Shown in pieces: positions 4,225-64,000 of a DNA stretch of 64,000 bases. The DNA is from Gnetum montanum (Eukaryota; Plantae; Gnetophyta): NCBI GenBank assembly GCA_015680685.1, contig MNCI01003125.1, positions 100,923-164,922 of the forward strand, written 5' to 3'. The notes beneath the pieces are model-generated. The model was given only the letters and a program-made list of their open reading frames with translations, had not been told where the DNA came from and did not search any database. How positions within the stretch are numbered: the first letter of the stretch is position 1; each line of letters opens with the position of its first letter. The position numbers were made by a program, and so were the translations under genes.

Positions 4225-4650
4225 ATTTAAGGTCATGATAGACCATGTGCTGGTTTAAGGTCCCAGTGGACCACTATGCTAGTTTAAGATCCCAACAGAC
4301 CATATGTGCCATTTTAACGTCATAGCGGATGTGCTGTGCTAGTTTTATGTCATAGCGGATGAGCTGTGCTAGTTTTACATCATAGCAGACGAGCTATGCC
4401 AATTTTATGTCATAGCAGATGATTGTCAACTTTGCCAATTTTACATCATAGCAGATAAGCTGTGCCAATTTTACGTCATAGAAAATGAGCTGTGCTAGTT
4501 TTATGTCATAGTAAATGATTGCTAACTTTGCTAGTTTTACATCATAGTGGACGAGCTGTGCCAGTTTTACGTCATAGTGGACGAGCTGTGCCAGTTTTAC
4601 ATCATAGCGGATGATTGTCAACTTTGCCAGTTTTATGTCGTAGTGGACGA
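4225..4650 (-). repeat. Post-integrase tandem array (28/30/42-bp units, core TAAAACT(A/G)GC)
   Basis: Repeated gctagttttatgtcatagcggatgagctgt units; shorter homologous arrays at ~21290-21420 and ~48740-49005. Confidence 0.9.
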
Positions 4651-4669: not shown

Positions 4670-7600
4670 TCACATGTAGTACGGCTTGAGGTACAAGTGA
4701 TTCATCAGGTTTGTGAACTCGTTGCCATCCATGCCCGCTAGCTTGAAGGCTCCATTTCCAAAGGCTTTAGTGACCATGTATGGACCTTTCCAGTTGGCTG
4801 AGAATTTGCTCACATGCTTACGGATGACCTTGAGGATGAGGTCTCCCTTCTGTACTAGCCTTTGATGTAGGTTTGCATGATGTTTGTGTTGTTGCTTGTG
4901 TTGGTAGTGCTCTATGTGGCTCAATATTTGTGTGCACTCCTCCTCTATTAAGTCAAGGTCAATAATTCTCAACTTGTTGTTCTAGGCTTCGCTCATGACA
5001 TTAGATAGGATCATCTGGACTGACGGTACTTGCAACTCAAGAGGCAACATAGCTTCAGATCCATAAACAAGACTATAAGGGGTCTTACTTGTCATGGTCC
5101 TACATGTCGTTCTATAGGCCCATAGAACATAGAGGATTTGCTTGTGCCACCACCTCTTATTATTGCTAAGCATCTGCTTCAGCAAGTTGATGATGGACTT
5201 ATTTGTAGCCTGCACCTATCTGTTCATCTACAGGTAATACGGGGAGGAGAATGATTGCCTAATTCCAGGATTGCTACTGAAGGTTTAGGTTTTCGTACTA
5301 CTGAATTGTGGTCCATTGTCGGTTACGATAGTTATTGGAAGCCTAAACCTTGTCACAATGTTGTCTAGAATAAAATGGCAAACCTGCTGAGATGTTGTCT
5401 TCCTCAGGGGGATAGCTTCCACCCACTTAGTAAAATACTTAGTGGCAGTGATAATGAAGCTATGCCCTATAGAGGACTTATGTGTGATAGGTCCTATGAG
5501 GTCTAGTTCCCATTATTGGAAAGGCCACGTGATTTGCAATGTGTGCAGGTCCATAGGTGAGACGTGTACGAGATTTGCATATCTCTGGCATGTGTCACAT
5601 GTCTTGAATTTTGGCAAGTATTCAGGCTCCATATGGAGCCATTAGTACCCTAGGCATCTAATTTTCATAGCCATAGCTCTAGGTGTTATGTGTCCACCAC
5701 ACAGCCCCTCATGTACTTCATTAATCACCTTCCATGCCTACTCCTTACCCATGCATGCTAGTAATATCCCATCATAAGAATGTCTACACAGGGAATCATT
5801 TCCCATGAGCGTATATTGCTAGGCATGCTTGCGGATTGCATCTCTTTGGGAAGATGTCAGTCTGCTTAGGGGTTCTCCATGTTGTAGGTAGGCTTTAATG
5901 TTGGCGTACCACTCCTGGGTATTCGTAGTGCTGATAGAGGTCACGTGTCCTACCTGAGTGATGGGCTCAGTACATTCAACAATCGAAGTTGATAGACTTG
6001 CAAACGAGTATGGTAGATATTTAGTGCTAGGGTGGCTAAGGTGTCTACCATGGTGTTCTCGTTGCATGGCACATGTTACACATCTATAGTTGTGAATTGC
6101 TTAAGCAAGCTTTTTGCTAGATCGTAGTAGGATTGTAGGTGTGTAGCTTTACAAGCATACACCTTGGTGACTTGATTCACAAATATTTGTGAATCCCCAC
6201 GAATTGCTAGGTGTTGTATGCATAGTGTTTGGGCAGCTAAGAGGACTCTAAGTAGCCCCTCATACTTTGCCACATTGTTGGTGCAGGGGAATGCAAAACA
6301 ATAAGCAAATGGGTGCATTTCCCTAGAGGGGAACATAATGACGGCAACTGCACTACCTCCTTGTGTGGTTGAGATGCCATCGAAGTGTAAAGTAGCTTCG
6401 AGGTATGATGGGATGCATTGATAGTACCAACATGCTCGTCTAGGAATTTGGAATCTATGGTTGCCTAGTCATTGATGGGTGAGGCTGTAAGTTGGGTTGC
6501 TATGGCTTGACCCTTTGTTGATGATTGGCTCACATAGTGTAAGTCGAACTTTGTGGTTATTGCTTTCCATTGGGCTATCCGACTACTTTCATACAAGTTG
6601 TTAGTAATAGCCCAGAGTATGTTTCTTTTGCAAATGATGTTAATTGTACTGTGAAACAGGTAGTGCCTCCACTTTTTTAATGCAAATACTAAGGCAAGAC
6701 AATTCCTCTCCACCTCATTGTATTTTGCCTCATGCACTATTAATGCATGACTCAGATAATACACTAGTATCTCATATTCGTCATCTTGTTTCTAACATAA
6801 CAGTGCTTCTATAGATGCGTTGGAGGTGGTAAGGTAAATAAAGAAAGGCTTATCCCTTTGTGGTGGATGCATAGTTGGGAGGTGAAAAAGCTCATTCTTT
6901 AGGTTGTTGAAGGCCTATTGACATTGGATTGTCCATTCGAAGTTAACCCCTTTCTTTAGAAGATGTTGCATGGGGTGTAACTTGTCAGTGAACTTTGCTA
7001 TAAACCTTTGAATGAACTGTACCCTACCTAGCAACCCATGTAACTCTTTAAGGTTTGTAGGAGGTACCAGGTAGATGATGGCCTTAACTTTGTCAGGGTC
7101 CACTTGATACTACGAACCCTAACATGCATCTGGTCTTCAAACCGAAGACACACTTCTTAGGATTAAGGCATAAATCATGCATTTGAAAACACTTAAGAAC
7201 TACCCCTAGATCACGTGGGTGATCAGCTACCTCCTTGGACTTGACCACTATATCATCCACGTAGTCGTTTAGCATTTCTAGGATGTAGTTGCTGAAGATG
7301 TAAGTCATGGCTTGCTGGTAGGTTGCTTCGACGTTCTTGAGCCCAAAAGGCATCATGGTGTAACAAAAGGTACCCCATGAGGTCATAAAGGTTGTTGTTA
7401 GCTAATGCTATGGGTTGATGTAAAGTTGGTTGTAGCCAGAGAAACCATCCATGAAGGATAATAGAACATGACCAGCCATAGTGTCAATGAGTTGATTGAT
7501 GCTTGGTAGTGGGAAATTGTCTTTGATTGTTGCCTTGTTCAGATCCCGTAAGTCCATATAGATTCGTATCCCTCCCATTTTTTTAGAAACTACAACAATG

Positions 7601-8133
7601 TTGGACACCCATTCCGAGTAATCAACTACATGATGAAATCAGCTTGATATAACTTAGTGATTTCATCTCTTACAGCTAGTGCAATTTCTGGTTTAACCTT
7701 ATGAGCTTTCTGCTTGACTGCCTTTGTGCGCAGGTCTAGGACAATGTTGTGCTGTATCAGCCACAGATCTAGACCCAGCATGTCCTTGTATAACCATGTA
7801 AAGACTTTGATGTTATCTTGCAGAATCTTGGCTACATTTTCATGTGTCTACACATCTAGGAGGGAGCTAAGTTTTAACTTTCTTTTTCCCCTTGGATGTG
7901 GTAACAAGCATCTCGACAAGAGGATCCTCAGTTACATCCCTAGCCTCTAAATCTAGGATTCGGACTAGATGTTCAGGCTAGTCTAGGGATGTTTTTAAGG
8001 ATGCTATGGTGTTAGTTGTGGTTGGCCCCTAGTCGATTAGATCTGGGTTCAATTGTCTTGCGAGCTTGCCATGTGGACCTGCTAAAGCTAAAGGCGTGGA
8101 GAGATCATGATGGATTTCTATCTTTTGCTCAAC
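4670..8133 (-). pseudogene. pol: pol of A: RT, RNase H, second (archaeal-type) RNase H, integrase; many stops and frameshifts
   Basis: DLNKA..KDNFPLP, LSFMDGFSGYNQ, MPFGLKN, YVDD, LNPKKCVFG; E..CLALVFALKKWRHY; TNNVA.YEGL..GDSQ..VNQ; LWAYRTT...TPYSLVYGSEA.LPLE; KFSANWKGPY. Confidence 0.95.
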
Positions 8134-8745
8134 CTATCAAAATGAGATGAAAGCCTAGTTAAGAGGCACATGTTGGTAGTAATTATGTGTAACAAAAACT
8201 TGCAAAGCAATGACAAGAGGTAACTAGCGAAGTATGATGTAAAGATTAAAATTTTTCCAGTTTAAAGTCATGGCAGATTGTTGTGGCATGGAGATGTAGA
8301 GATGCTAAAACAAGGAATGTAAAATTGTCGATGTGAGAAAGTGAAACTCCTAAAAAATGCAAAACTGTCAACGTAAAAATGTGAAACTGCTAGTTTAGCA
8401 TCATTGCGGACTGTGAACGCGTAACAGATCAAAATTGCTAGTTTAAAGTCTTTTTGGACCATTAACTAAAGTGTAACACTATGCTAAAAATGCTAGTTTA
8501 TGGTCTTTTTGGACTGTGAAAGTTACAACTACGTTGGGATTACTAGTTTAAGGTCTTTTCAGACCCATAACTAACAAAAAACATTTTTTTTCATTATTTG
8601 GGAAAGAAAAAAGTTAGCTTGAAGTGTGCCAAGGTTTTAATGCCAAGAGTGCTCTGAGGTTATGGAGAGCATGCTACGCTACATGACGCACTCCACATTA
8701 AACAAAGAGAGAGAGTGGCAAGTTTTCCCTTTTCATCATTACAGT

Positions 8746-8768
8746 CATAAATAGGGATTAAACCCTGG
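8746..8768 (+). promoter_or_regulatory. TATA box plus telo-box-like motif upstream of the antisense gene
   Basis: cataaatagggattaaaccctgg in A; TATAAATAGGGATTAAACCCTAG in C (44892-44914, -); ~150 bp upstream of ATG ATG (G/C)CT CCA AAG. Confidence 0.6.
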
Positions 8769-8903
8769 TAAGCTTGTCATTCTAACTGTAAGAGCGCAAA
8801 GCCCATATTTGGAGCACAAAGTGATTTCAGAGTGTAAAGAAAGTGTGCTAACAATGAGCAAGGCAATTTTTTGCATAGCGACTAGGAAAAGCCTACAAAC
8901 AGG

Positions 8904-11900
8904 ATGATGGCTCCAAAGAAGGAATGCACTCACTTGGAACTCGCAAAGGTCGAGGAGGTAAAGAAAACCCTAGGGTGTGTGACACAAGCATGTGTGATGG
9001 TGCGGAAGGACACACTATTGACTCAGTAGGCTGCTATGCTTCCTTTGCTTCCTCATGATTCTATTATCATTTTTGTTTTCTACTTTCATTTTGTGATTCA
9101 GTTTTAGTTATTCATGTTTTCTATCATCGTGTTGTCATTGTTTTGGCCTTTGCACCATCGTTGTTGCCGTTTTGGCCATGGTGGATGCATAGACACTACA
9201 CTGACATTGCATGCAAGGTCACCTAAACTGCCACTGCTATGGTTGTCATAACTATGGGGGTTTGGATAGTTTAGGTTACTTGGCTTTTGAATGACGTAGC
9301 GTAGGACCCTCAAGAGGGTTTGGCCATGTGTGATGTGATAGTGCGACACGTGTTTTGTTAGGGCATATTGTTAATCGCCCTGTTAGAATTAATCGCTCTG
9401 TTGCTATGGTAGGCTATTTTTCATGTTCTTGCTATGTTACGTGTGGGAAGAGGGTTATGCTACGCTATATGCATGAAATGCTAGGTATTGCTATGTTGCG
9501 TATGCATTGCACTTGGACATGATGCTAACACTTGCTAGTTGTGTCAAACAAGATGGGGCTAAGGCCAATTCTAATTATCTTAGAAATTGTAGGGGTCCTG
9601 TGTTACGTAGGAAAACCTATAGCCAATGTTCCTCCTCCCAATATACGTGTGGGGGAGCAGGGGGTTTGGTTCAGGAAAGGAGCATAGGAGTTCCTACAAT
9701 ACCTCCTCCAACACTTCAATGTGATCGTTTGGTCATACCTAGAGGAGGAAGAGGCAGCTATCATAACAGAAGCCCTCTTTCCTGGGGCAAGCTAGGGCAT
9801 CCTGAGGTTTTTGACGGATGGAGCAATCTTTAGCAGGCAAGGAGAAGGATCCAGTCAATGCCCCATAGAGTTAAGGCATTTGGCCTGGATCTAGGATATG
9901 CCTAAGTATAGTTGCTACCATCCTTACAACATATTATTTGTTGCACATTATATGGCAACGTGCTTCCAAAACCCACCAAGGACTGTCTACTTTGTTGGCG
10001 GGTGAGTTTTGTAGTCCTGTTCCACTGTATTGTGTGATGCTTGCTATATTAGCCAAACACTAACAGTATATTTTTGTTACTAGGTTCTACATCAACAAGG
10101 ATAATATGGATATCCCAACAGGAGTTCTTTTCTATTGAGAACCTCTGTGCAGGTGTGATCGGTCAATGCGGGGGTGAATACCACACCTACCTAGATCTAT
10201 ACCCCATTCCCTACAATAGGTGCAAGGAGCGTGGTTGGTTGGATGAGGGATGGACACCCTTCAAACTGATCACTGTTGAACAATTTCTAGTTAGTCTCCC
10301 ATGGTTCCCATTGCTGTAAAGACCTGGTAAGCTAAATAGTAAGTGTATGCATGCTTAAGTGTCTTTGCAATCTTTGGATTTTCTATGTTTTTATGCTAAA
10401 TGTTTCTTGTGAAAATTTCTGCAAGGGCGAAAAAAGCCCTGGAGGTGATGGTGGTAACCGCCGAGACACAGGAGGCAAACATCTACTTCAACTACAAAGA
10501 AGTAGATGCAAGCCAATGTTGGATAAATGATGTGGCTTTAGACTCCTTGGTCCAGAATATCCAAAAGGCTAGGCTTATGGATCTATTCTTGGCCCCAAAT
10601 ACAAGCGTTCCTACCATCGAGATGCTCTCCCTGGTCAACTCCTTTTCCGACAAGGCAGGCCACTTCCACATGCACATATAGGGCTTACGGGTGGTCATTG
10701 AAATCAATGACCAACTATTCATAGATATTTTCGATGTCCCTATTGATGGCATCCTCATAGGATCAAAGTCCAAGAAGGAGCTAACCCTTCAGAAGAAGGA
10801 CATCTAGGAGTGATTAGGGATTAACAAGGAGTAGAAGGGGCTCCCCATGAAGAAGCTTAAAGCAGGACCTGCCAGGGAGGTTTACCCTATCTTCTGTGCT
10901 CACACATTTTCCTAGTTGCTTTCCCAAGGGAAGTTCCTAGGGATTGAGCAGGCTTGGATAATGCATGAGGTCATGGAGGAAGGGGCCCACTACAACTGGG
11001 TTAATTTTTTGTGTAAAGGCTTGCAAGCTGAAATTTTGGGGCTTCATAAGAAATTGGAGTCTTGTTCCAATATACATTATGCCTTTTACATAGCTTGTCT
11101 GAAGCATTTCATAGAGTTTCTGGTAGTTCATGAGAATGGAACCTGGGTCATGCAAAATCGTGACCAGATTTTTAGACCGTGGATCTGCTAGATCCTCCAG
11201 ACCACTTGAGCCCAAGACCCCCCATAAATAATTAGGGAGTCATTCTCCGTGATGAATAAGGATTGAGTGGTTCACAACTTTTATGGCCAAGATAGCATAG
11301 GAGAGATGTCCCTCGTTGTAGCCAGTAGCGTATCATGGGGGGAACATCTCATAGCCGAGATTGTAGTTAGAAAGTTGCAGTGGAAGAGGCCTCTTCTAGC
11401 TAAGGAAACCCTTCACATGGAGGAAGAGGAGGGGTGGAGACTACAACTTAAATTGCAGAGGATGCAACCCCCCATTGGTAAATTCTTTTGTTCATGTTTA
11501 TTCCTTGGCTTACTTTGTTAATGCCTACTACGCTGTGCTACGCTAGACTGTGTAGCATAGCATAGCACCTACTTTAAGCTAACCTATTTTGAGCTAATGA
11601 AAACATGATTCTTGGCTGACAAAAGAAGAAGAGGAAGATGAAGAAGGTGATGAAGAGGTGTTGGCCCCTAAGATGGGGGTAATGAATAAATACACTGAGG
11701 CCCTACGTCACGGAAGAAAGGGCCTCGGTAAAGAAGAAAGAAGCTCCTGTCGCTAAGGTAGGGGCTCTCATCATTAGGTAGAATCCTCCTACTAATGAGG
11801 AGGGAATTTTTGAGGATGAAGAGGAGTCTCCCTTGAATAAAAAAGATGTTGGTCTCTCAAAAGGAAAGGCACCAGTGCATGAAGAAGAGGCTTGTACAGA

Positions 11901-13329
11901 CTTGGTAGGGACCTCTGCCAAGGCTACCACCATCGTTTTGCATCAATAGGAAGGGGGGATGCAATTGGATGTTGGTGAGTTTGGCAATATTTCTACCTTT
12001 TCATAGCCCATTTCAACCATTTTTGATACATTTAGTTATATGATAGGTGCCACTATTGATGCTGCAAGACCCCCTCTAATTCATGTAGAATCATGAGCTG
12101 AGATCCTTGATAAGTTTACATTCATGCAGGGAATCATTGACAACATGATCAATTGCCTTTAGCAGGTGGACCTTGAAGTGGGTAAGTAGTAGTGTTAGGT
12201 GCTCTCACGTTTCTATGCTAGAGTTTTCAAATTTGTTAATCTTCATTACACTAATGCAATTGACATGATCTTTGTGTCTTGGTAGCCTCTTGGCTCAAGT
12301 GGGACATGACATGTCCTTTGAAAGTTGGTGTTGTGTCTACATTCCTGCCTAAAGTGACTAAGGTATCTTGTCACACATACAAAAAGGCTTGCAAATTTGC
12401 TTTGCACTCAACATGCTCCTTGTGGGAGTATAAGTGCATCAACGAGGACCTGTGGAAATGGGTCCAGAAAGCTAAGCAAGAGAAGGTCAACCTAAGTATC
12501 GAGGTGAAGGATCTCAAGTCGAGGAACAAATTCCTCATAGCCCATGAAACTAATAATGAGGACTGGCACATGGCTATGATAGATTACACCAGATTTTGGA
12601 TAGCCGTGCATCAGAACTTCGAAGCCACCCACGAAATAATGGAACAGTGGATGCAAATGGACTTGTTAGCCCAGAAATGTTAGGATTTGAAAGATTTTAG
12701 CACCAAGGTTTATGAATGCGGGAAGTCCCAGAAAATCCATAAAAATATGTATAAACTAGAACATGCCACCTATCGTAAACTATACAGGGACGCTACTGTG
12801 GAGGCGTTTATGTATAAAGCATTCATAAATGCCATTGACATTTTTGAGGCCTATGCCAAATTCAAAGAGTAGGTAAAGGTTATAGAATCTCCTGACTAGA
12901 AAGTGGACCTTCCCATAGGAGAGACCGCAACTGTCTTCTTTTCTCCAGGACCACCAAGGTGGAAGAAAGCTGACAGGGAGAGAGTTGCTGCAGATGCTAA
13001 TCCAAGCAATAGGTGTTGGGTGGACATCACAACAGAAGAGGTCTGGCATCGCCTCGAGCTCAGTTTAGACCAGATACCCTTTGAGATGGGTGCAGGTCAA
13101 TCCCATGTTGGTTGCTTTCTACTATATTAATGCTTATGCTTTGTTGTAGCTTGCATGCATTGCTTTAGCTGACCACTTCATTTCTACAATGCAGGCTCTA
13201 GATGAGGGTGCAAGGTCCATAGAGGGAAGGAATGAAGAGTTGGCAAAGGAAAATGTAGGGGAAGGAAATGCAAAAGGAGGTGATGTAGAAGTGAATGGTG
13301 AAGATGATGTGAATAGAGACAACCTGTGA
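8904..13329 (+). pseudogene. Antisense multi-exon accessory gene of A: FCP1/NIF-like pseudophosphatase + plant-transposon-type domain + acidic linker + coiled coil
   Basis: Start MMAPKK; exon ~9552-10001 reads RPILIILEIVGVLC..VWFRKGA*EFLQYLLQHFNVIVWS..LRHLAWI*D..YNILFV..FQNPPRTVYFVG; GT-AG intron 10002-10083 with cactaac branch site; further introns at ~10327-10424, ~11480-11621, ~12182-12285 and ~13108-13168; ends ..NRDNL*. Confidence 0.8.
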
Positions 13330-13505
13330 TAGCATGGGATTTTTTTTTTGAAATTTTGAGTTTTTGTAAAATTTTTGCAAACATCGCTTGAAAGGCATTA
13401 GTTTTGAATAAAGAAAAGAGAATTTCGGGAAAAGAAATTGATTTTGCGCTAACTCATGCATTGTGTATGTGTTATGTTTTATGTAAAATTTTCATGCTTT
13501 TGTGT

Positions 13506-13640
13506 GCTAGTTTCAGGCCATTTTGGGCCACTGCTAGTTTTAGGCCATTTCGGGCCTTTGCTAGTTTTAGGCCATTTTGGACCTCTACTAGGTTTAGGCC
13601 ATTTTGGGTCTCTGGTAGTTTTAGGCCATTTCAAGCCTCT
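13506..13640. repeat. 27-bp tandem array (5 units, gctagttttaggccatttcgggccwyt)
   Basis: Directly visible; homologous arrays in B and C. Confidence 0.95.
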
Positions 13641-13803
13641 ACGTAGCGTGCCAAAGAGATGATACGTTAACAGCTTGAATAACAACTAATTGGTAACTTT
13701 CGTAGACAGATGGATGCAAACAATGAAAGATGGTAATGTAAAAAGGATGGAGACTAGGCAGGAAGCAGCGAGGTTGCTACACTATGCATAGCTACTTCTT
13801 GAC

Positions 13804-16800
13804 CCATCATGGGTTGAGTGGAATGTAAGGCTGAGGTGCTTTGCCAGGGCCTTCATTTGCATCATTATCCTCCACTTGGAAGGGTAACTCAACCCACACA
13901 CTTTCATTTTGGTAACCAGCTTGTTGAGTTGATTCCCCTGCTAGATGGTTAGTGTCTGCGTAAGTAGGTGCTTCATTCTCAAAGGTCACAACCTCTGAGC
14001 CCTACTCCATGTCTATGTTATTGATTGCTTGTGCTGCTACCTCGTCACCATGGATCACCACCTCCCTGCTTGCGTATGGTAGGTGGATTTCCTAGTGAAT
14101 GGGCAAAGAGATAGCCCTAAGTTATGCTAACCATGATCTCCCCAAGATCAGGTTAAACCCAGGCATCTCCTCGACCATGATGAACATCATGTTTGTGGGA
14201 AACTGATCCCCTTCTATGAAGTCTATGTGGATTGTGCCTTTCATCATGACCCGCGTCCCATTGAACGACCTCAGGCATGACATTGCTGTGGATTTGATCT
14301 AGTTGACCAAGCCCAACATATCCACAATAGGAAAGGGGATGATGTTCGTGGTAGCCCCATCATGAATGTGTACCCTTCGAATCTGATGTTGGCTGACCCA
14401 AATTGTTATGAACAGGGGTGCTGTAGTCACCTAGCCCCTTTCGGGATCTTCCTTGATAGCGTCATTGTAGAAAGTTAGTTGAGACTATTCTGGCTCTACA
14501 AGTTTGGAGGGGAGCATGACCGAGTGGATCGCTTCCTCTTCTACTAGCATGTCTTCGCTGACCGGAATTACTATTAACATGTGGATCAGAGCCTCACAGT
14601 GTGGGATGGATGTCATGATTAGGTCGTACAAGCTCAACATAGTATTTTTCTATTTTAGAGTTTGTTTGACCTAAGTGAGGGCATCTAATAGGTCTTGGCT
14701 ACCCCCTATTTAACACTTTCATCCTCTTCTATTCATCCCATAAGATGAATTTCTCAAGGAGGGAAAATTTTGGGTCTGGGCTCAGACCCTTCTTAGTAGG
14801 GCGATGTGGACTGTATAGTTATAGCGACATCCCTCTTCGGTGATGAGGGCATAGATGTAGGGGGTGAAGATGTAGGCTTGGAAATACCAGGGGTGGTACT
14901 TCCTCTTGATGTTTCACCTGTGAAATGCACTTCCCATTTTTTAGGAAGAGAAGGTTGTTCAACTGTCTTGCATGGGATGGAGGCTATCGGATGAGTTGGC
15001 CCCCTAATGATAAATGGAGCTAACGGTGTTAACAAGCGGGGTGGCATGGTTCTGCTAATAGGTGGTGTAGGGATGGATGCTTGGGGAGGAACCCCTAGAA
15101 CAAATGATTGTTGCAAACTTCGGCCAGCCACTAGTGGTGCAAGTGCACTATGCTGAGGCACATTGACCATGAACAGTTGCTGGGATGGTGTAGGATCACT
15201 GTTAACATCAATGGTATTGATAACATAACTGGCATTGTTGGTGTTGAGGGGGTCTATGTAGAGATGCAGAGATTGATTCTCAGGGCGTACTAGGTTGCTT
15301 TCGTCCAACATCAGTTTCCCCTAATCAATCATCCTTTGGATGTCATCCTTCAATGCCAGACAGTAATCCAGGTTGTGACCACATTGTTGGTGGTAGTTAC
15401 AAAACCTATCTAGCCTGAAACCTGTAGGAACTGGGGGCTCATTGGGTAGGGCCAAAGAGGGGTTCCTAAGGAGCTTGTAGTAGCGTTGATGTCTCTCGAT
15501 CCCTTGTTTCGACATCTGCTTATGTTGGATGTGCCCCGCTTCCAATAGTTGCTTTAGAAGTTTTGAAGGCTTGAGAGGTAGTGGGGTGTACTTTGAGTGA
15601 TCTTTCCGCTCAAAGTTTGGTTTTAGTTGTGCGGATGTCTCAGGTGTGGGTATGAAAGGTTGCTGCACATTGCTGTGCTTGGGTGTGGGATTGGCTATGG
15701 GTACGACCAGTTTCTTGTTGTTATTGTTACCATTGTTACTAGGTTTGGGCTTGGCCTTAGTCACCATAGCAACCACTATGGTTGTTGGGACCTTACCCTT
15801 ATCCTCCTTTGCAAAGCTGTTTTTGTAGGCGACATAGGCTAGGTATTTTCTTTTCTTGGTTGCATCCTATATACTCAGTCTGAGTGAAGGCTTGACTAAG
15901 AGTGCGAGGGGTGAGGTAGTATAGTTTAGACTTGATAAAGTCATTCACTACATCCTTAAAGATGGCCAACAAGTGGACCTCTGTGATGGGCTCACGGATT
16001 TCATTAAGGGTTGCACTCCAACGCTGGATGAACTTCTGGACTGGTTCCAAAGGATCCTGCTTCACACTCATCAACTGATCCAGTGTAGTTTTTGCCTTCA
16101 AGTTATACTTGAAGCACATCACGAACTCGGTCAAAAGCTTCTCTAGAGTTGAAATAGATGAGTGTGGCAGCATGCGGTACCAATCTAAGGCTTTCTCAGC
16201 TAGGGACATAGCAAAGACATGGATAATCATGTGTGGCCATTGTTGCAATAGGAGGGATTCAGACCTAAAGATAACAAGATGTGCATTGGGATCTCCCTCC
16301 CCATTGTACTTTGCCAAGTGAGGAAGGGACATCCCTGGGGGTAACGTGAGCACAGGGATTGCAGGGCTGATAGGGTTGTCCTGGTAAAAGTCCATGACTT
16401 GTACCATGTCAGACCTGACAACCTTGAGGCATTTTATTTCCTTGATAAGGATTTGGATAAGCTGGAACACTTGGTCCAAACCTTGCGATAATGTGGATGG
16501 TTGGGGAACTATCGAGGTAGCTCCCATCTGTGGAATGGTAGGGGTGGGAACATGACCCATTGGTGGTACCATTGGGATAGCCCCCGCAAACGGTGCTACT
16601 TGTGCTATCCACCACTTGGTAGGTGGTGCTGTTGGAGTAGCAACCGTAGCTTGGGCTTCTTGATAAATCGCTTGTGTCACCCGTGGAACAGACCATAGCC
16701 CCATGTTCGGTTGTACTGTTTGTGCGGTTTGGTAGGTATGAGGGCGAACATAATGAGACATTTGTGATGGTTGTGGAATAGGTGAAGAAGTGAACGGGGT

Positions 16801-18012: not shown

Positions 18013-18344
18013 TATAGCAACCAAAAACGTCGGTGGCTAGAAAACACTAAGAGGTTGCCAGTCATTGACAGCCTTAAACCCATATCTGTGCGAGGGCCAT
18101 GCTTGATGAAAATGGAAATGGGGTGCCTTGAACAGTTTGGTCGATCAAACAGGGACTTAGTCAGTGTTAATATAACCTTTCATAAATAGATAATTTGAAA
18201 ATGATACCTCTAGCATAAAATGATAACTTTAAATGCAAGAGGGATAGAAAACAATGTAAAAATGCAATGATAAGAAAGAAAGAAAAGTAAAGTGCAGTTA
18301 GAAAAATGCACCACTTTATGATTATGACTTCACTCTGTCAAAGG
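18013..18344 (-). repeat. 5' LTR of A, part 1 (interrupted by B)
   Basis: Matches 1186-~1517; adjacent to the PBS. Confidence 0.93.
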
Positions 18345-20271
18345 TGTAGCGATCGAAAACATTGGTGGCTGGAAAACACTGAGGGGTTGATGGGCACGAC
18401 AGTCTCAACCCTGTATCTGCGCGAGGGCCATGCTGGGTGTGGGTAGATACGGGGCGCCCTGAATGGTTTGGTTAATCAGACAGGGACTTAATCAGCATCT
18501 ATATAGCCTTTTGCAACATATGGTTTTGAAAATGGGGAAGAAAACGTGAAATAATGCTTGAGAGTAAATAATGTAGAAAAAATAGTGCAAAACACAACAA
18601 TAAGCAAGAAACAAGTTAAAATATAGTTAGAAAAATGCATTGCTCTGAAGTTACAAATTTGCTCTTTCAAGGTGGATACAGTCAGTTGCATAGCGTGGAG
18701 GAGTGCAGAGATCCTAAGAGTAAACAAGATGTGTAGAGAAAAATAGGTTGTATGCTTGGGCGCAGCCTTGGGCGCTGACAATGCAGGGATTCTACCAAGG
18801 TGGTAGAAAGGGAGACAGAACAAAATACCAACTAAAGATGCTAATTGTTTGCAGTGTCAAATTGAAAGCTTACAATGCTCAGTGCTCAATGTTATGATTC
18901 TTGCTTTTTTTATTGAACCTCTAGAGATAGTGAAAAACACAACAATAAGTAAGAAACAAGTTAAAATATAGTTAGAAAAATGCATTGCTCTGAAGTTACA
19001 AATTTGCTCTTTCAAGGTGGATACAGTCAGTTGCATAGTGTGGAGGAGTGCAGAGATCCTAAGAGTAAACAAGATGTGTAGAGAAAAATAGGTTGTATGC
19101 TTGGGCGTAGCCTTGGGCGCTGACAATGCAGGGATTCTACCAAGGTGGTAGAAAGGGAGACAGAACAAAATGCCAACTAAAGATGCTAATTGTTTGCAAT
19201 GTCAAATTGAAAGCTTACAATGCTCAGTGCTCAATGTTATGATTCTTGCTTTTTTTATTGAACCTCTAGAGATAGTCCAACCCTTTGAGCACTGCTCATC
19301 AGGGTATTTATAGGGTTGAAGGGCACCTAAAAGGGATGGTTTGGATGCCACATGCCCTAGGCCCATGTTAGGTTGCTAGCGCCACACGTGCCATGTATGA
19401 CCATTGGACCTATAAGACCATTGTAATGCAATCTTGTTATGTCATAACTATGAGCCTGCCACATCGTAATTACATCGTCAGCATCTGGAGACATGTGCCA
19501 ACGGTCCAATGAGGTTAAGTGCATTGATGTTGCACAACCACCCACATGCCTTGCTGTGCTTTATAGTGTAGCATTCTTAGCGTAGTGTAGCACCTTGTCA
19601 CATGTTCCACTACATGTGTGTTGCATACTTGCTACATTATGCTATGCTACGTAGTGTAGCAACTGGCCTTAGTTGTGAAAGCTTTGCCAATTTACAAAAT
19701 TTGCTTCCTATGATGCAAGACTTTGCAAACTTTGAGCTACATTTTGTCTCTTTCGTAGGATTGCTACGCCTCACTGTGCCATGTAGCTCAGTGTAGCGTA
19801 GCAGCAGACATGGTCTGCTACTTCTTGACCGAAAGGAACATTGTTAAAGGACTTGAAATTGGGTGAGGGGAATGGTTATAAAGTTGTTGCCATGCTATGC
19901 TATGTCACGTATCATAGCGTAGCATAGCACTTCATTCTACAATCATATTCTTAAGCTTGCTATGCTACATAGCGAGGCATAGTGTAGCGTAGTAGACTTC
20001 GTGACTTAGAAAACTTGCCAAACTATTTCATGCATTTGGAATGCTGATACCAACTCCGTGCATCATTGCTAAACAAGCTGTCGGCTGGGTAGGCTACTTA
20101 GGTGGACAGGCAGGATGACCTATAGAGCTTGTTTACACGTAAAGTAGAAAATTTTCTGAATTGACCAGCTTGAATTCAGAGCATTCTCCTCCAGAAGAAC
20201 TACTGTAGTGTTTGCGTGAATTGTAATGCCTGGTGAAGCAAGAATGACTTCATAATTTTTTGGGTGTTTCA
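18345..20271 (-). repeat. 3' LTR of B
   Basis: tgtagcgatc...tgtttca followed by the PPT; homologous to 33368-34931. Confidence 0.95.
18582..19276. repeat. 345-bp tandem duplication inside the 3' LTR of B
   Basis: Units 18582-18926 and 18927-19271 are nearly identical; ATAGT occurs at all three borders; absent from the 5' LTR. Confidence 0.95.
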
Positions 20272-21466
20272 TTGGCCCCTCTTTGTCGACGTTTGGAGGA
20301 CAGGCTCGATAGACATTGACAAAGAATACAAAACACCGTAGCAGGAAAAAAGCTAAGGTTGTCGCTCGGTGAGTGTCAAGACATCACTTGGCCACACTTG
20401 AGAGTGTTGGATTGGTTTTGCAGAGGTTAAGGTAGAGAGAAAATATGATGTTTAGTAGAGTCCCTTGTTGGAGTGCTCATGAGGGACTCCTTCACATTTT
20501 CATCTTTGGCTGGTGCTGTTCTTCAACCTCTCATAGGACCGGTGTTTCCTTCGCAAGATGAGTTGCATTACATTTTTGAAGATTTTTGACCTACCTACAA
20601 ATGCTTTCCATTCAACGAGTTGTGTTACGCATGTCATGGAATTTGCACTCTGAAGTAGCTGAGCTAGTTGAGGCACTCACTTTATGACACTGTAGCATTT
20701 GATGTTGTTGCGAGCCATGCCCGCAGGGGCAAAGGTCTTGTTGGCTGCTAGCATTGTTAAAGTTTTTGGGCATCGTTGCTAGCATGTGATGTCCAAAGTA
20801 GGAAGGCCAGTAGCAACCTTGGTGGCACCAGCATAGAGGAGCTAGCCTCGAAGGTCCCGGGGGTTGTTTTGAGTGTGGATGCAATAGAATCCCTGCCAAG
20901 GAAATGCATTCTCAGTTTAGCTATGGGATTAGCTACCACATAGTTAAAAATCTTGGAAGCTGAGGTGTTGGTAGGGGGCTGGAGAGTAATAATATTGTGG
21001 TTGGGCCATAATACTGCTGGAACTCCAACTGTGGGAACTAGCCAAGGATCTACCATCAAGGCGATGGGCCGTGGTGATGGTAGGTCTGGAGGGCTAGTAT
21101 AATGCCATACGACATCTCCAGAGGGTCAACATGTTACCAATGGTGATGGCATTGCGTGTGTCCCGGACCGCATTCTCATTGCGTCGTGAACTGCATTCCA
21201 GAGCTGTGATGTCCCACCCACACGTCAGCATTGTGCATGCTCGTCTGATGCATAATTGGCATAGATGCATGCTAGGGATGTGATGTGAACCCAGTTTAAG
21301 GTCTTGGTAGACCGTATGCTAGTTTAATGTCCCAATAGACTGTACATGCCAGTTTATCATCGTAGCGAATGGGTTGTGCCAGTTTTAGTTTAACGTCATT
21401 GTGGACGTTGCTTAGTGGAGTTGCCAGGTTATCTTCGTAGCAGATGGTGGTGGCTACCGTTGGGCC

Positions 21467-24280
21467 TCAGACGTAGTATGGCTTGAGGTATGAGTGATTC
21501 ACCAGGTTTGTGAACTTGTTGTCATTCATGCCCACCAGCTTGAAGGCTCCATTCCCAAAGGCTTTAGTGACTATGTAAGGACCTTCCCAATTGGCTGAGA
21601 ATTTTTTCATGTGCTCACGGACGATCTTGAGGATGAGGTCTCCCTTCTACACTGACCGTTGATGTGGGTCTGCATAGTGCTTCTACTGCTACTTACTCTA
21701 GTAGTGCTCGATGCATCTTAGCATCTGCGTGTGCTCCTCCTCTATCAAGTTGAGGTCAATGATCCACAACTCGTTGTTTTGGGCTTTGCTCATGATCTTG
21801 AATAGGATCATTCAAAGTGATGGTACCTGAAACTCAAGAGGCAACACAACTTCAGATCCATAAACAAGACTATAAGGGGTCTTACTTATCGTGGTCCTGC
21901 ACATCATCCGATAGGCCCATAGAATGTAGAGGATTTTCTCATGCCACCACCTCTTGCTGTTGTTAAGAATCCACTTCAGCAAGTTGATGATGGACTTATT
22001 TGTAGCTTTCACTTGCCTGTTCGCTTGTAGATAATAGGGGGAGGAAAATGATTGTTTAATGCCTAGATTGTTGCAGAAGGTTCGAGTTTCCGTACTACTG
22101 AACTATGACCCATTGTTGGTCACAATAGTCATTGGAAGCCTGAATCTGGTTACAATGTTGTCCAGGATGAAATGGAAGATTTGCTGAGACGTTGTCTTCC
22201 TTATGGGAATGACTTCCATCCACTTAGTAAAGTACTCAGTGGTAGTGATAATGAAACTATGCCCTACGGAGGACTTAGGCGTGATAGGCCCTATGAGGTC
22301 TAATCCCCATCGTTGGAAGGGCCATGTGATTTGTGTTGGGTGTAGGTCTGTAGGTACTGTGTGTATGAGATTTGTATATCTCTGGCACGTGTTGCACATC
22401 TTGAATTTTGACAGGCAGTCACGTTCTATGTGGGGCTAGTAGTACCCTAGGCATCTAAGTTTTGTAGCCATAGATCTGGATGCTATGTGTCCACTGCACA
22501 GCCCCTCATGCACTTCATTAACTACCTTCTACACTTGCTCCCCACCCACGCATGCCAACAATATCCCGTCATAGGAATGTCGGCACAAGGCATCATTTCC
22601 CATGAGCACGTATTGTTAGGCACACCTATGGATTCCATCTCTCTGGGCGGATGTCAATCCACCTGGGGGCTCTCCATGTTGTAGATAGATTTTAATGCTA
22701 GCATACCACTCCTGGGTATCTATAGCATTAATAGAGGGCATGTGTTCCACCTGAGTGATAAGCTCTACACATTTTATAATCAAGGTTGGTAGATTTTCCA
22801 AGGAATGTGATGGAATGTTTAACACATTTGTCATGGTATTCATGTTGCATGGCACCTATGGTACATCTGTGGTTGCGAACTGCTTAAGGAGGATTTTTGC
22901 TAGGTCATAGTAGGGTTGCAAGTGCATAGCCTTGTAGGCATGGATTTCAGTGATTTGATTCACAACTAGTTGTGAATCTCCCTGGATTACCAAGTGTTGT
23001 ATGTGTAGTGCTCAAGTAGTTAAGAGGCCTCTAAGTAGCCCCTCGTATTCTACCATGTTGTTGATGCAGGGGAACACAAAATGATAAGTGGATGGATGTA
23101 TTTCCCCAGAAGGGAATGTGATGACGGTAGTGGCGCTACCTCCTTTTGCGGTTGAGGCACCGTCAAAGTGTAAAGTGACTTCAAGATGCGATGGGACAAT
23201 GTCAATATTGCTAATGTGCTCGTCTAGGAATTTTGGGTCTATGATTGCCCAATCATCAACTGGTGAGGCTATGAGTTGGGTTGCTATGGCTTCACCCTTT
23301 GTCGATGATTGACTTACATAGTGTAAATCGAACTTCATGATTATTACCTTCCATCAGGCTATCTTGCTACTTTTGTATAGGTTGTTAGTGATAGCCCAGA
23401 GTATATTGCTCTTGCAAATGACATTGGTAGTGTTGCAGAATAGGTAATGCAGCCACTTTTTTAGTGTGAATACTAAGGCAAGGAAATTCCTCTCCACTTC
23501 ATTGTATTTTGCTTCATGTGTTATTAGTGCATGGCTCAGATAATACACTAGCATCTCAGAACCATCGTCTCACTTTTGACATAGCAGTGCCACTACAGAT
23601 GTGTTGGAGGTGGCGAGGTAGATAAAGAAGGGTTTATCCCTTTGTGGCGGATGCACAGTCGTGAGGTGCGAGAGTTCCTTCTTCAGGTCATCGAAGGCTT
23701 GTTGACACTAGGTTGTCCACTCCAAGTTAACCCCTTTCTTTAAATGATGTTGCATGGGATGTAACTTGTCAGTCAACCTTTCTATGAACCTTCAAATGAA
23801 TTGTATTCTACCTTGCAAACCACGTAACTCCTTAAGGTTTATGGGGGGTTCCAGGTTGATGATGGTCCTGACTTTGTCAAGGTCCACCCTTATTCTGGCC
23901 TTTGATACTATGAACCCTAACATGTGTCCAGTTTTCACCCCAAAGATGCACTTCTTAGGATTGAGGCATAAGTCATGCGTTTGGTAGCATTTGAGGACTA
24001 CCCCTAGATTGTGTGGGTGATCAGCTACCTCCTTGGACTTGACTGCTATGTCATCCACGTCGTCGTTTAATGTTTCTAGGATATAGTCACTAAAAATGTA
24101 AGTCATGGCTCACTGGTAAGTTGCTCCAGCATTCTTGAGCCTAAAGGGCATCATGATGTAGCAGAAGGTCCCACATGGGGTCATGAAGGTTGTTGATAGC
24201 TGGTGCTCTGGATTAATGTAGATTTTGTTGTATTCAGAGAAACCATCCATGAAGGATAGCAGAGCATGTTCGATCATGGT
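21467..24280 (-). pseudogene. pol: pol of B (N-terminal part of RT deleted)
   Basis: LSFMDGFS, VDDIAVKS, LHFDGAS (aRH), WPFQRWGLDLIGP (INT); homology to the RT of A stops abruptly at ~24280. Confidence 0.93.
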
Positions 24281-24623
24281 TGCATGCAAGGCCACTGAAA
24301 CTACCACCACTGCGGTCATCATAACCGTGGGGGCTAGGGCAATTTAAGTTACTTGACCCTTGCATGTCATAAGGTAAAACCCTTAGGAGGGCTAGGCTGT
24401 GTGCAATGCGGCAGTGCGATATGTGTTTTTCTAGGGCATGTCATCAATTGTTTTGTTGCCACCTTAGGCAATCCGCATGTTCTTGCTATGCTAGGCTTTC
24501 ATGCCCTTGCTTATGTGTGGGCAGAGGGTTATGCTATGCTATATGCATGAACTACTAGGCATCGCTATGTTGCATGTGTATTGCCCTTAGTGTGATGCAA
24601 ACATTCACTAATTGTGTTGTGCA

Positions 24624-27600
24624 GGGCGGGGCTAAGGCCTAAGTTGATTATTTTGAAAATTAGAGGGGTCTTGTGCCATGTGAGAAGATCTGTGGCCAAT
24701 GCTCCTCCTCCCCAGATACATATGGGAGAGCGAGGAGTTTGGTTCAGGGTAGGGGCATGGAACTTTTTGCAATTCCTACTTGACCACTTTAGTGTGATCG
24801 TTTGGTCCTCCTTGGAGGAGGAGGAGGCATTCGACATAACAGAAGCCATGTTTCTTGGGGCAAGTCAGGGAATTTTGAGATTTTTTACCGATGGGGCAAT
24901 CGTGAGTAGGCAGGGAGAGGGATCCAGCCAACATTTAGTAGGGTTAATGCGTTTAGCCTGGATCTAGGACATGCCTGAATACAACTGCTACCACCATTAC
25001 AACACATTGTTCCTCGGATGTTACATGTCAACGTGCTTTTAGAACCCATAGGGGACTATCTATTGTGCTGGCGGGTGAGTCTTGCAACTTTGTGTCACTA
25101 CGTTGTGCAATGTTGGCTATATCAGCCAAATGATAATAGTACATGTTTGCTACCAAGTTCTTTATCAATGATGATGGGGTTCATGATTGATCAGGTCTAT
25201 TGGCTATAGCACAACTAGCCTTATAGGAATTCTCTTCTACTAAGAACCTGTGGGCGGGTGCGATCGGTCAATGCGGGGGAGAGTACCATACCTACCCAAG
25301 CACATTTCATGTTCCCTATAATCAATGCAAGGAGAAGGATTAAAGAAGTTCTGGTTGAACTCCCATTGTTCCTATTATCATATAGGCCCAGTGGGTCAAA
25401 CAGTAAGTGTCGTATGCTCTAATTTTTTGGCAATCCTTGTATTTCTTGCATCATTATGCTAAGTGTGTTTTGTGAAAACTATTATAGGGGCAAAGAAGCC
25501 CTAGGAGGTGATGGTAGTATCTGTCGAGACGTAGGGGGTGAACATCTACTTCAAATAAGGTGAAGTAGAAGCAAGCTAGCATTGGCTAAACCATGGGGCC
25601 TCAGACTCCCTAGTCTAGAACGTCCAAAATGTGGGGCTTTTGGATCTGTTCAAGGCCCTGAATTCGAGCGTTCCTGCTACTGAGATGCTCTCCCTGGTTA
25701 ACTCCTTCTCTAAAAGGGTGGGCCATTTTTGCACACATATATGGGACATGCAGGTGGTCATTAAAATTAATGACCAGCTATTTACAGACTTGTTTGGTGT
25801 TCCTGCCGATGGCCTCTTCATAGGGTTGAAGGGAAAGAGGGAGTTGACCCTTTAGAAGAAAGATATCGAGGAGTGATTGGGGCTTGTTAAGGAGTGAAAA
25901 GGGCTCCCCATGGATAACCTTAAGGATGGGCCTTCCATGGAGATTTACCCCATCTTCCATGCTCATGCATTCCCCCAACTGCTTACCCAAGGGAAGGTCC
26001 TGGGGCTTGAGCAGGCCTAAATAATATGCGAGGTTATGGAAGAAGGGGCCCGTTACAACTAGGCTAGTTTCCTATGTAACAACTTACAAGATGAGATTTT
26101 GGGACTCCATGAGAAAATGGAGTTCCACTCCAACATACACTATGCCTTCTACATAGGTTGTCTGAAGCACTTCGTGGAGTTTCTGGTGGTTTAAGAGGAT
26201 GGAGTCTGGGTCATGTGAAATTGCAACTAGATTTCCAGGTTGTGGATTCACCATGTCCTCCAAACCACACACAAGACCAAGATCCCATAGAAATAATCAG
26301 GGAGTTCTTATCTATAACGATCAAGGATCTGGTGATTCACAATGTTCATGGCTAGGATAGCATAGGAGAGATGCCCCCTGTTATAGCCGGTAGCATGACA
26401 TGAGGGGAACGTTTCATAGCTGAGATTGTGCCGAAGAAGTTGTGAAGGAAGAGGCCTCCCCCAGCCAAGGAAACCCTTCGTGTGGAGGAAGAGGAGGGAC
26501 AAAGACTATGGCTTAAGCTGTAGAGGACACAACCCCCCATTGGTAAATGCTTTTGTATAATGCTTACTCTATTATTTTTTTCTATGTTATGCTATGCTAG
26601 GCAGTGTAGCGTAGCATAGCATCTGCTTTTAATTAACTTATTTTGGATCAATGCAAACATGCTTCTTTGCTAGCAGAGGAAGAAGAAGAAGAAGAAGAAG
26701 GTGATGAAGAAGTGTTAGCCCCTAAAACAAGGGTGACGAATGACGACATGGAGGCCCCAGTCTCACTGGAAAGGGCCCCAATCAAGAATAAAGGAGCTTC
26801 TATCTCTAGGACAAGGGCTCTTGTTATTAGAGAGCCTCTTTCTACTAATGAAGAGGCATCTCCCTTGAATAAAAAAGATGCTAATCTTCTGAAAGAAAAG
26901 GCACCAGCACATGAGGAAGGTGCTCGTGTAGACTTAGTAAGGCATTCCACCAAGGCTACCGCCATCGTCTTGCATCAGCAAGAAGTAAGACCATAGCTAG
27001 ACACTGGTGAGTTTGGTGATACGTCTGCCTTGTCATGGTCCATTATGGCCATTGCTAATATGGTTAGTCATGTAATAGGCACTACTGCTAATGCTGAAGG
27101 ACCTCTTCCAATTTGTGTGGAGTCATGGGCTGAGATCCCTGACAAGTTTGCATTCATGCAATGACTTGTCAACGACATGATCAAACATCTTCAGCAGGTG
27201 GACCCTGACGCATGTAAGTAGTCGTGTTAAGTACTCTTATGTTGCAATGCTAAAAATTTTTGAGTTTGTTGATTTTGGTATACTAACGTGATTGCTATGC
27301 TCTTTGTGTCAAGGTAGCCTCTTGGCTCAAATGGGACCCGATGCAACCTATGAAAGTTGGCACCGTGCCTACACTCTCACCTAACATGATCAAGGTGCCT
27401 TGTTGCATGTTCGATGAAGCTTATGAGTGCATCTTGCATTCGGCACACTCCCTATGGGAGTATAAGTGTGTCAATGAGAACTTATGGAAATGGGTCCAAA
27501 GGGCTGAGTAAAGAGAGGCCAACCTGGTCACTGAGGTAGAGGATCTCAAGTCGAGGAACAAGTTCCTTGCAACCCGTAACCCTAATAATGAGGATTGGCA

Positions 27601-28362
27601 TACGGCTGTAGAAGACTATGACAAGTTTTGGACTTTCCTTCATCAGAATGTTGAATCCACTCGTGAGATAATTGAATAGCAAATGCAGATGGACTTGGTA
27701 GCCTAGAAGTGTTAAGACATGAAATATTTTAGTGCCAAAGTTTTTGAATGGGGGAAAACCTAGAGAAATAACAAACACGTGTACAAGCTAGAGAATGACA
27801 CCCATCGAAAATTGTACAAAGGTGCTGCTATGGAGGCATTCACATATGAAGCATTCATGAATTCCATTGACACTTCTGAGGCCTATGCCAAATTCAAAGA
27901 GTAGGTAAAGGTTACGAAATCTCCTGACTTAAAAGTGGACCTTCCCATAGGAGAGACTGTGACCGTCTCCTTTTCCCTGGGACCTTCAAGTGGACGATCA
28001 TGGAAAGGGAGAGAGTTGCTATTGTGGCTACTAAACCTAGCAATAGGTGTTGGATGGACATCATGACAGAGGAGGTTTGGCATTACCTTAGGCTCGGTTT
28101 AGACCGAATACCCTTTGAGACTGACGCAGGCCCTTCTCAAGTTAGTTGCTTTACTGTGTTGGTGTTTATGCTCTATTGTAACTTGCATTTGTTGCCCTAG
28201 CTGACTGCTTCATTCCCAAGATGTAGGCTCTAGATGAGGGTGCAAGGCTCGTAGAGGGAGGGAATGAAGAATTGGCAAAGGGCAACATAGGAGAAGGTAA
28301 TGCAAAAAATTGATGGCACAAAGGTGAGCGGCGAAGCTAATGTAAATAGAGAAAACCCATGA
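24624..28362 (+). pseudogene. Antisense accessory gene of B (promoter and first exon deleted)
   Basis: ORF 24614-24967 RPKLIILKIRGVLC..WFRVGAWNFLQFLLDHFSVIVWSS; intron 25075-25156; acidic stretch EEEEEEEEGDEE at ~26675-26710; colinear with A. Confidence 0.8.
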
Positions 28363-28538
28363 CTGCATGGGAGTCTCTTTTTTTTCTTTTTTTTTTTAAA
28401 TTTTGAAATTTTGAAATTTTGTACAAGTTTTGCAAACATTGTCAACAGGTGAAAGTTTTGAATGGAATGAAAAACTTCAAGAAAGAAATTGATTTTGCAT
28501 TAACTTATGTATTGTGTAAAGTTTCCATGCTTTCATAT

Positions 28539-28722
28539 GCTAGTTTTAGGTCGTTTCGGGCCTTTGCATAACATGCCAAAAGAATTGTATGTTAATAAAG
28601 AAAAACAAAACAATGCTAGTTTTAGGCCATTTCGTGCCATTGCTAGTTTTAGGCCATTTCGGGCCATTGCTAGTTTTTGGCCGTTTCGGGCCATTGCTAG
28701 TTTTAGGCCGTTTCGGGCCATA
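28539..28722. repeat. 27-bp array of B (1+4 units)
   Basis: gctagttttaggccrtttcgggccatt units. Confidence 0.9.
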
Positions 28723-28837
28723 ATGTAGCATGCCAAAGAATGGCATGTTAGTGAAACAAAAAGTAATGAATGTGTATGGGCTGGCAAGTGGGTGGGAAGT
28801 AGTAGAGTTGCTAGGCTATGCATAGCTACCTCTTGAC

Positions 28838-31800: not shown

Positions 31801-32576
31801 CAACTTTGGAATGGGCGAAGAAGCAAATGGGGCCCACCATGTGGATGGGTCGAGGCTCACCATACATGAATGTAGGAATAGAGACAAAAGTCATGTACGA
31901 TTGTGAAATAGGCATGGTATGAACATGTGGAAGGGTAGCCACGATTGGTGTATGATGTGCTACAGAAATAGAATGCTGAACAGTCGGTAGAGGGATAGTC
32001 ATTAAAAACAACATAGGTGAACTAGGTGAAAGAGGGTGTTGGGACCCCACAAGATTGGCATGGCTACCCATAGCAGATCTAATCGTGGGTTGTGGAAGCG
32101 TAGGCATAATCACAAAGGGAGCGGTGACATACAATGGCTTGGACCAAAAGGACTGGGTAGGAGGGACAGGAACGGGGTTGGTTGGACCTTCCTCGTCTGA
32201 TTGGGAATCAAGTTCCTCCTGTCTATCCTAGAAAGCATCATCTTGGTTGGATGTAGTATCCAATTGCTTCCTAAGCCTAGCCAACTGGATTAATTACTCT
32301 AGAAGCCTTTGGTACACTTGTGTTAAAGGTAAAGAAACGCTAGGAGTAGGAACAAACTCCTTCCCATTGTAGTAAGTGAACTCGAAGCTACATTTTTCCT
32401 TGAGTTCGTGTCAATCTCTCAGGTCCTCGATTTTGGATTCTAAGAGATCAACATGTTTCTAGGATCGGGTTTAGCGGTTGTTCGGCACTAGTAGTGCCTT
32501 GAATCGTGATGGGGTCTTCAATGTTGAAGGGAACTTCCATGTTGAAGACATTGGTGGCAATAGTTGAAAAAGCCAT
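28838..32576 (-). pseudogene. gag: gag-protease of B
   Basis: FCDYHQQCGHNTDYC knuckle, gag core, protease VDDGAA; colinear with A. Confidence 0.92.
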
Positions 32577-32659
32577 TGCAAGCTAAATAGTTTTGTAGAA
32601 AAGTGCAACAAGTGCAAAAAGGAAAAAAGAGATTGAAAGGAAACAAAAAGAAGGCTTCA

Positions 32660-33310: not shown

Positions 33311-33367
33311 GAACTATCATGACATGTGAAAAAGGCACCAAAGGCCCTCCTTCTAGTGCCAGAAAAT

Positions 33368-34931: not shown

Positions 34932-34936
34932 AAATG

Positions 34937-39661: not shown

Positions 39662-39825
39662 GTCAAGAAGTAGCTATGCATAGCATAGCAACCTCATTGC
39701 TTCCTACCCAGTTGCCATCCTTTGTACATTACCATATTTTGTTGTCTGCATCCATATGTCTACGAAAGTTTCCAGTTAGCTGTTGTTCAAGTTGTTAACG
39801 TATCATCTCTTTAGCATGCTACGTA

Positions 39826-40133: not shown

Positions 40134-40310
40134 ACATAAAAGCATGAACATTTTACACAAAACATAGCATGTAGATAATGCACGAGTTAGCACAAAATCA
40201 ATTTTCATTCCCGAAGTTCTCTTTTCTTTATTCAAAACTATTGTCTTTGAAGCAATGTTTGCAAAAATTTTACAAAAATTAAAAATTTCAAAAAAAAAAC
40301 TCTCATGCTA

Positions 40311-63875: not shown

Positions 63876-64000
63876 NACGCGAGGCGAGAGATGTCCTCTT
63901 CCGATATGGGGACATCAAGGAGGCGCAGCGGTGGCTTAGCCACGCGGCGGCCCCCGCTGTGGTGGTCGCCAACCTCCAGACCGCAGGGCTGCTGCACCTG

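Follow-up and report, generated by a model that had tools for sequence, protein, structure and literature searches.

A likely catalytically dead NIF phosphatase domain in an antisense cargo gene of Tat-type retrotransposons from Gnetum montanum

The stretch of 64,000 nucleotides of the Gnetum montanum genome analyzed here (contig MNCI01003125.1, positions 100,923 to 164,922; hereafter the window) holds five copies of an exon predicted to encode a NIF/FCP1-like HAD phosphatase domain. Our results indicate that the domain is real, has been under selection, is likely catalytically dead, and sits in an unusually placed cargo gene of a Tat-type Ty3/gypsy retrotransposon family. On balance, we favor the interpretation that it is a noncatalytic binding module of a predicted nuclear cargo protein that favors expression of the element, a regulatory role that would be analogous to those of known host proteins.

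The cargo exon encodes a NIF-like domain

A preliminary description had proposed that a retrotransposon cargo protein begins with an FCP1/NIF-like phosphatase fold lacking its catalytic aspartates. The peptide quoted in support was located in a plus-strand frame at 9552-10001 (copy A), interrupted by four TAG stops, and all five copies of the exon were recovered within the window. Copy B lies at 24625-25074 (plus strand), copy C at 43641-44090 (minus strand, element C itself being on the plus strand), and copy D at 52625-53083 (minus strand, with pol on the plus strand from 55261). Copy E, at 62668-62987 (plus strand), is 5'-truncated, stop-free, and CpG-rich and adjoins a 3' LTR; ∼38 codons are gone at its start, motif I among them.

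In HMMER searches against Pfam NIF (PF03031), copy A passed with an E value of 9.2e-5 and 22.6 bits, above the gathering cut-off of 21.8, while copies B, C, and E fell below it (E values of 0.019, 0.0029, and 0.007) and copy D gave no match. A profile of the cargo, searched with HMMER against 1.84 billion representatives, returned 111 matches, the best at 57 bits. All 30 of the matches that were scanned carried NIF, and those named among the 10 looked up were Asteraceae FCP1-domain proteins and one Sphagnum cluster. Aligned with hhalign to 29 of these cellular NIF matches, the cargo reached 99.6% across 143 of 148 columns, and a profile of the same 29 proteins scored 39 to 66 bits on the five copies versus a shuffle maximum of 4.4 (500 shuffles per copy); both tests are partly circular because the 29 proteins were found with the cargo profile.

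The predicted model of the domain is of low confidence (pLDDT 44.9). With this model, Foldseek ranks 1 to 13 were all NIF-fold structures (SCP, CTDNEP1, Tim50, and Fcp1; best E value 1.1e-3, none at or below 0.001), and the top VIA match was SCP1, with a Z score of 8.7 and an rmsd of 3.4 over 124 residues, so that SCP1-type phosphatases head both fold searches. Word-index protein searches with the NIF exon, its alignment, and exon 3 gave no match, the cargo profile, searched directly against PDB sequences, met with chance matches only (E above 1), and a metagenome scan with the NIF alignment found 0 relatives among 128 pattern matches. The proposed NIF/HAD fold was borne out by the Pfam, profile-profile, Foldseek, and VIA results, and 9552-10001 encodes a real NIF/FCP1-like HAD domain.

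Its suggested affinity with FCP1 and SCP did not hold, the closest cellular relatives being instead a DxNG group with Asn at +2 in 95 of 105 domains, whose nearest solved structure is UBLCP1. These cellular proteins match the cargo along the full length of the profile and share with it a Gly three residues after the nucleophile position, a W-S motif II, and an N-T-L...N-P tail, but differ from it in having retained the nucleophile Asp (in 102 of 105 domains) and, for the most part, the Lys and DD. In a quick tree of 116 rows, the five copies grouped together on a shared stem of 2.27 changes per column, whereas the donor was not placed, the cargo forming a long branch of unsettled position relative to the DxNG proteins. 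The match to their C-terminal tail was not significant, and exon 2 was rejected as a continuation of that tail, as 20 of 300 shuffles of copy E scored equally high.

Six plant proteins of the DxNG group (P0001, P0002, P0003, P0005, P0008, and P0010), five of them named from Asteraceae, carry two tandem NIF domains. The second domain is degenerate at motifs I and/or IV in all six, and these proteins are candidate cellular pseudophosphatases.

The host elements belong to the Tat clade

The window is a stack of decayed, nested Ty3/gypsy elements of one family. Element A, on the minus strand, contains gag (15799-16800; Pfam Retrotrans_gag), a protease-like region named by motif and position (14005-14520), and pol (5102-8133), the latter with RT (7102-7626), RNase H, an additional RNase H (aRH, 6079-6468; RVT_3), and integrase (5102-5737). 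Its 3' LTR (1186-2892) follows, in element sense, a polypurine tract, and its 5' LTR is split into 18013-18344 and 34932-36295 by element B (18345-34931), with the primer binding site (PBS) next to 18012. Element A has itself inserted into element C, at the start of gag. The LTRs, which are 85% identical within the pair of element A and 84% within that of element B, have TG...CA ends and near-matching 5-bp target duplications and are accompanied by a PBS and polypurine tract. Together with the order of gag, protease, a ∼6.4-kb gap, RT, RNase H, additional RNase H, and integrase, these features place the family in the Tat clade. No tRNA genes were found in the window.

The best RT relatives retrieved are 46 to 54% identical, and among the best 80 of at least 517, most show the RT-aRH-INT order. 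The cargo and NIF profiles matched 0 of these 80 (best 3.8 bits), many of which lie on short contigs. Where both protease and RT were detected among the 80, the gap between them is ∼1 to 2 kb versus 6.4 kb here. The gene order of element A corresponds to the "retrovirus-like" Tat structure, which has been described for clubmosses, hornworts, ferns, gymnosperms, and angiosperms (PMC10508981 and PMC13468544, in part).

Tandem arrays of 30/66 bp occupy 4275-4643 in the 3' region, and a 345-bp tandem duplication, 98% identical, lies at 18582-19276 within the 3' LTR of element B. A local rearrangement is seen around element C: its 3' LTR is truncated at 51809, and two separate fragments of the gag start region (51873-52109 and 1017-1184) lie on either side of it. 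Around copy E, the CpG-rich and stop-free region 61632-64000 has a short 3' LTR and a polypurine tract (∼62290-62305) beside the truncated NIF exon; this copy is likely an internal-deletion derivative or a member of a subfamily with 3' cargo. An N at 63876 followed by a 123-bp repeat of 63461-63583 is likely an assembly join.

The cargo is a multi-exon gene antisense to gag-pol

The NIF exon is part of a family-wide multi-exon cargo gene that lies antisense to gag-pol, between protease and RT, and its proposed retrotransposon-borne nature was thus confirmed. The predicted first coding exon of copy A (8904-9025, plus strand) opens with ATG, is 122 nt long, and ends in a phase-2 GT donor, with a TATA-like box ahead of it near 8746; the first coding exon of copy C (44756-44635, minus strand) agrees in length and phase. 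Because this ATG exon lies upstream, the NIF exon cannot be where the cargo protein begins, as had been thought. The acceptor of the NIF exon has decayed to AA in copy A, and a phase-2 GT donor follows the exon in all five copies. Exon 2 (10084-10340, plus strand, end approximate) then opens in frame; it occurs in all five copies and has no family match. Exon 3 (10416-11480, plus strand, ends approximate) is a conserved domain with dN/dS of 0.22 to 0.53, and the later exons (11620-13100, plus strand), of which the last spans 12264-13100, include an acidic/basic low-complexity stretch. From exon 3 onward, conservation is seen in A, B, and C and, in part, in E, in which exons 2 and 3 contain no stops. 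A coiled-coil scan was not significant, with 81, 17, and 101 of 300 shuffles scoring as high.

Exon 3 has no Pfam match. Its Atlas leads, plant-only clusters at 0.88 and 0.84, contain DUF1985 in 10% and PMD in 16% of members; hhalign against the DUF7745/PMD ORFs of Ogre gave 0.7%, below the best of 100 shuffles, and the structure model (pLDDT 37.5) was too poor for a fold search. With neither a Pfam match nor a significant profile comparison, a PMD (PF10536)/DUF1985 identity of exon 3 is a weak lead only.

In element A, a predicted protease-RT intron (8134-13803, minus strand; 5670 nt, GT-AG, phase 0 at both ends) would enclose the entire cargo gene in antisense. A phase-0 GT donor follows the protease in A, B, and C, a phase-0 AG acceptor precedes RT in A, C, and D, and removal of 5670 nt in A or 5609 nt in C would join the two reading frames. 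Owing to the antisense placement, the introns of the cargo would survive retrotransposition. Close to its 5' end, the predicted intron carries 27-bp tandem arrays in A (13475-13684), B (28611-28739), and C (39801-40158). Element B lacks ∼1.7 kb at 24268-24280, which has removed the RT start, the intron acceptor, and the first cargo exon. A distant paralog of the last cargo exon (22% identity) lies 3' of the integrase of element D at 59394-60188 (minus strand). It may represent either a further antisense cargo gene at the classical 3' location or a piece of some other element.

An intron of 5.6 kb would have to be both kept, for packaging, and removed, for pol expression, and a regulator of that choice would therefore be useful. 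The cargo could accordingly be imagined to act on the particle or its RNA, through Gag binding, export of unspliced RNA, or control of protease-RT splicing, instead of on chromatin. Among the HAD fold matches of the low-confidence model is a baculovirus capsid chain, 8i8b_J (Z 6.1), the 38K phosphatase. However, a Pfam scan of the cargo found no RNA-binding or Gag-binding motif, and antisense transcription alone could tune splicing without any protein; we regard this explanation as unlikely.

The catalytic residues have been replaced

In the four copies in which motif I can be read, it is LEIVG (A), LKIRG (B), LEIAG (C), and MDLIH (D), as originally reported. DxD(T/V) occurs in none of the four; the nucleophile position reads E, K, E, and D, the first Asp being present in copy D alone and Glu taking its place in A and C, and the second Asp is missing from all four. 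The Lys of motif III, invariant in 29 of 29 aligned cellular relatives, is replaced by R, M, R, H, and R in A to E. The DD of motif IV, found in 77 of 93 relatives, is absent from all five copies, which have AH, GC, AR, SL, and AR, again as reported. The assertion that the catalytic aspartates had been lost thus stands for the DxD and DD motifs and fails for the retained nucleophile Asp of copy D. SCP1 loses its activity when Asp96 is mutated, and its Asp206 functions in Mg2+ binding (PMC3215212, available text).

It had also been suggested that the domain binds phosphorylated RNA polymerase II C-terminal domains (CTDs) as a decoy or reader, with Arg at motifs III and IV possibly replacing Mg2+ as the phosphate ligand. 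The motif II Ser is present in 5 of 5 copies, Arg occupies motif III in A, C, and E and the second position of motif IV in C and E, and SCP1 is the top match of the predicted fold. Nevertheless, SCP1 binds the phosphoserine (phospho-Ser5) via Mg2+ and accommodates Pro3 in a hydrophobic pocket that includes Leu155 and Tyr158 (PMC3215212 and PMC7281111, excerpts), while the cargo has lost the Mg2+ ligands and, in a chained alignment in which these two pocket positions were mapped, has Glu at both in A to C and Thr/Val in E. The closest relatives are, moreover, DxNG/UBLCP1-like. Since neither Mg2+-dependent phosphate binding nor the hydrophobic pocket of SCP1 is kept, the CTD-decoy idea is weak, and we think it quite improbable; a general adaptor role for the domain is plausible.

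Still less probable, in our view, is that intact members of the family act as phosphatases, or did so until recently, and that the window happens to show derived dead lineages only. The Asp of copy D, the Glu of A and C, and the sampling of only five copies would fit such a scenario, but DD is absent from all five, even from copy E, which has no stops, and from lineages whose synonymous divergence is saturated. A weaker argument against it is that no change at the Ala-Arg codons of copy E appears among the 40 of 323 RNA-read differences listed.

The domain evolved under purifying selection

Each of the 10 motif IV codons is at least one transversion away from Asp, whereas the stops in copies A to D fall mostly at TGG, CAA, or CAG columns, as expected of decay by transitions. 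We infer that the catalytic residues were lost by selected substitution and not by decay of the copies. The dN/dS of the NIF exon is 0.20 for A-B (0.10-0.36), 0.44 for A-C (0.25-0.82), and 0.30 for B-C (0.16-0.53), with all bootstrap intervals below 1, while that of RT is 0.14, 0.39, and 0.19 for the same pairs and shifted frames gave 0.69 and 1.19. Synonymous sites have reached saturation in comparisons with D and E, where pN is 0.34 to 0.43. The low dN/dS and saturated synonymous sites suggest that the domain remained constrained after its catalytic set had gone, and the closeness to the RT values makes the NIF domain likely a selected pseudophosphatase.

The stops in A to D and the truncation of E might be taken to mean that the cargo is a functionless host-gene fragment, passively carried, but this is scarcely credible and largely refuted by the RT-like dN/dS, by splice sites and phases preserved across saturated divergence, and by the long common stem that precedes the split of the copies.

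Related copies are transcribed

RNA reads from related copies map to both regions, those of A and E, at low depth, and are mostly less than 90 to 95% identical; none of the reads on copy A is 99% identical to it. These reads show transcription of relatives and not of the window copies. In run X1, whose strandedness is assumed, reads over the NIF exon lie mainly on the expected cargo-sense strand (0.5-0.6 versus 5-18 for A and 0-5 versus 12-25 for E), which is suggestive of transcription antisense to gag-pol. Read depth in this run dips over the predicted introns of copy E, an effect that faster divergence of introns could also produce, and none of the mapped reads spans a predicted splice junction.

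A model for the cargo protein

Our favored explanation, that of a noncatalytic binding module in a nuclear cargo protein, can be set out as a series of steps. An ancestral element would have acquired a NIF gene, probably one from the DxNG group, with which homology is clear. The domain would then have lost DxD, Lys, and DD while staying under purifying selection, as seen in the present copies. Transcription would start in antisense at a promoter of the gene itself, within the predicted protease-RT intron, and the cargo introns would thereby survive reverse transcription; the gene structure is evident in the copies, the RNA strand is suggestive, and splicing is predicted. The NIF exon would be spliced in frame to the downstream domains, with which its phases fit, and the putative fusion could recruit host factors of chromatin or RNA processing, or block them, a proposal made solely by analogy with MAIN/MAIL1-PP7L. 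This scheme is drawn from five decayed or truncated copies in one window, one of which, copy D, has the nucleophile Asp.

MAIN/MAIL1-PP7L, the MAIL3 fusion, and fungal Tim50 likewise use a (presumably) inactive phosphatase fold as a partner or receptor module. According to the available text of PMC9899485, PMD proteins are bound by PP7L, itself presumably inactive; the NIF fold of fungal Tim50 is inactive and binds peptides, and human Tim50 is reported to be active though a translocase subunit (PMC8346121, in part). PP7L, however, has a PPP fold and acts in a host silencing pathway, Tim50 is mitochondrial, and PMD in the cargo is only a lead. PP7L, presumably inactive, is the partner with which host PMD proteins act, and fusions of PMD and PP7 have arisen on two occasions (PMC7156037 and PMC9899485, excerpts). 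We tentatively raise, as a rather doubtful extension, the idea that a Tat lineage built its own fusion of PMD and a dead phosphatase as a counter-silencing factor, spliced in antisense within a giant gag-pol intron and convergent with the host MAIN/MAIL1-PP7L system.

Comparison with other retrotransposon cargo

The extra ORFs of Tat/Ogre/Retand elements (PMD and Transposase_28) are likewise family-wide and antisense to gag-pol, in elements with the RT-RH-aRH-INT order (PMC4408406 and PMC6317226, available portions). Those described there sit 5' of gag or 3' of pol, with no NIF listed, unlike the present cargo, which is multi-exon and lies between protease and RT. In Ogre, a spliceable intron separates gag-protease from pol (PMC4408406, in part), and in-frame GT-AG signals occur here too; the intron predicted here would be ∼5.6 kb long and contain a whole antisense gene. 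An AlkB-like demethylase ORF in orchid Gypsy elements also represents a host enzyme domain fixed in a Tat-related family, but the orchid enzyme has retained its cofactor residues and shows activity in vitro (PMC9289625, excerpts), whereas the cargo NIF domain lost its catalytic residues.

A full-text search of mainly freely available literature found no description of a NIF/FCP1 domain in an LTR retrotransposon. None is named in the domain table for eORFs in Additional file 4 of PMC6317226 or in the available text of PMC9289625, PMC11963269, PMC7264820, PMC13468544, and PMC10508981, nor do the accessible portions of these six sources contain an antisense gene between protease and RT. The survey in PMC6317226, as far as its available text describes, looked on either side of the polyprotein for long unspliced ORFs. 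A multi-exon gene in antisense inside a predicted intron would be missed by such surveys, and cargo genes may therefore be undercounted.

For the majority of extra ORFs in plant Tat/Athila elements, no domain can be recognized and no role is known. A conserved and recognizable pseudoenzyme provides a handle on what the cargo genes of these elements do.
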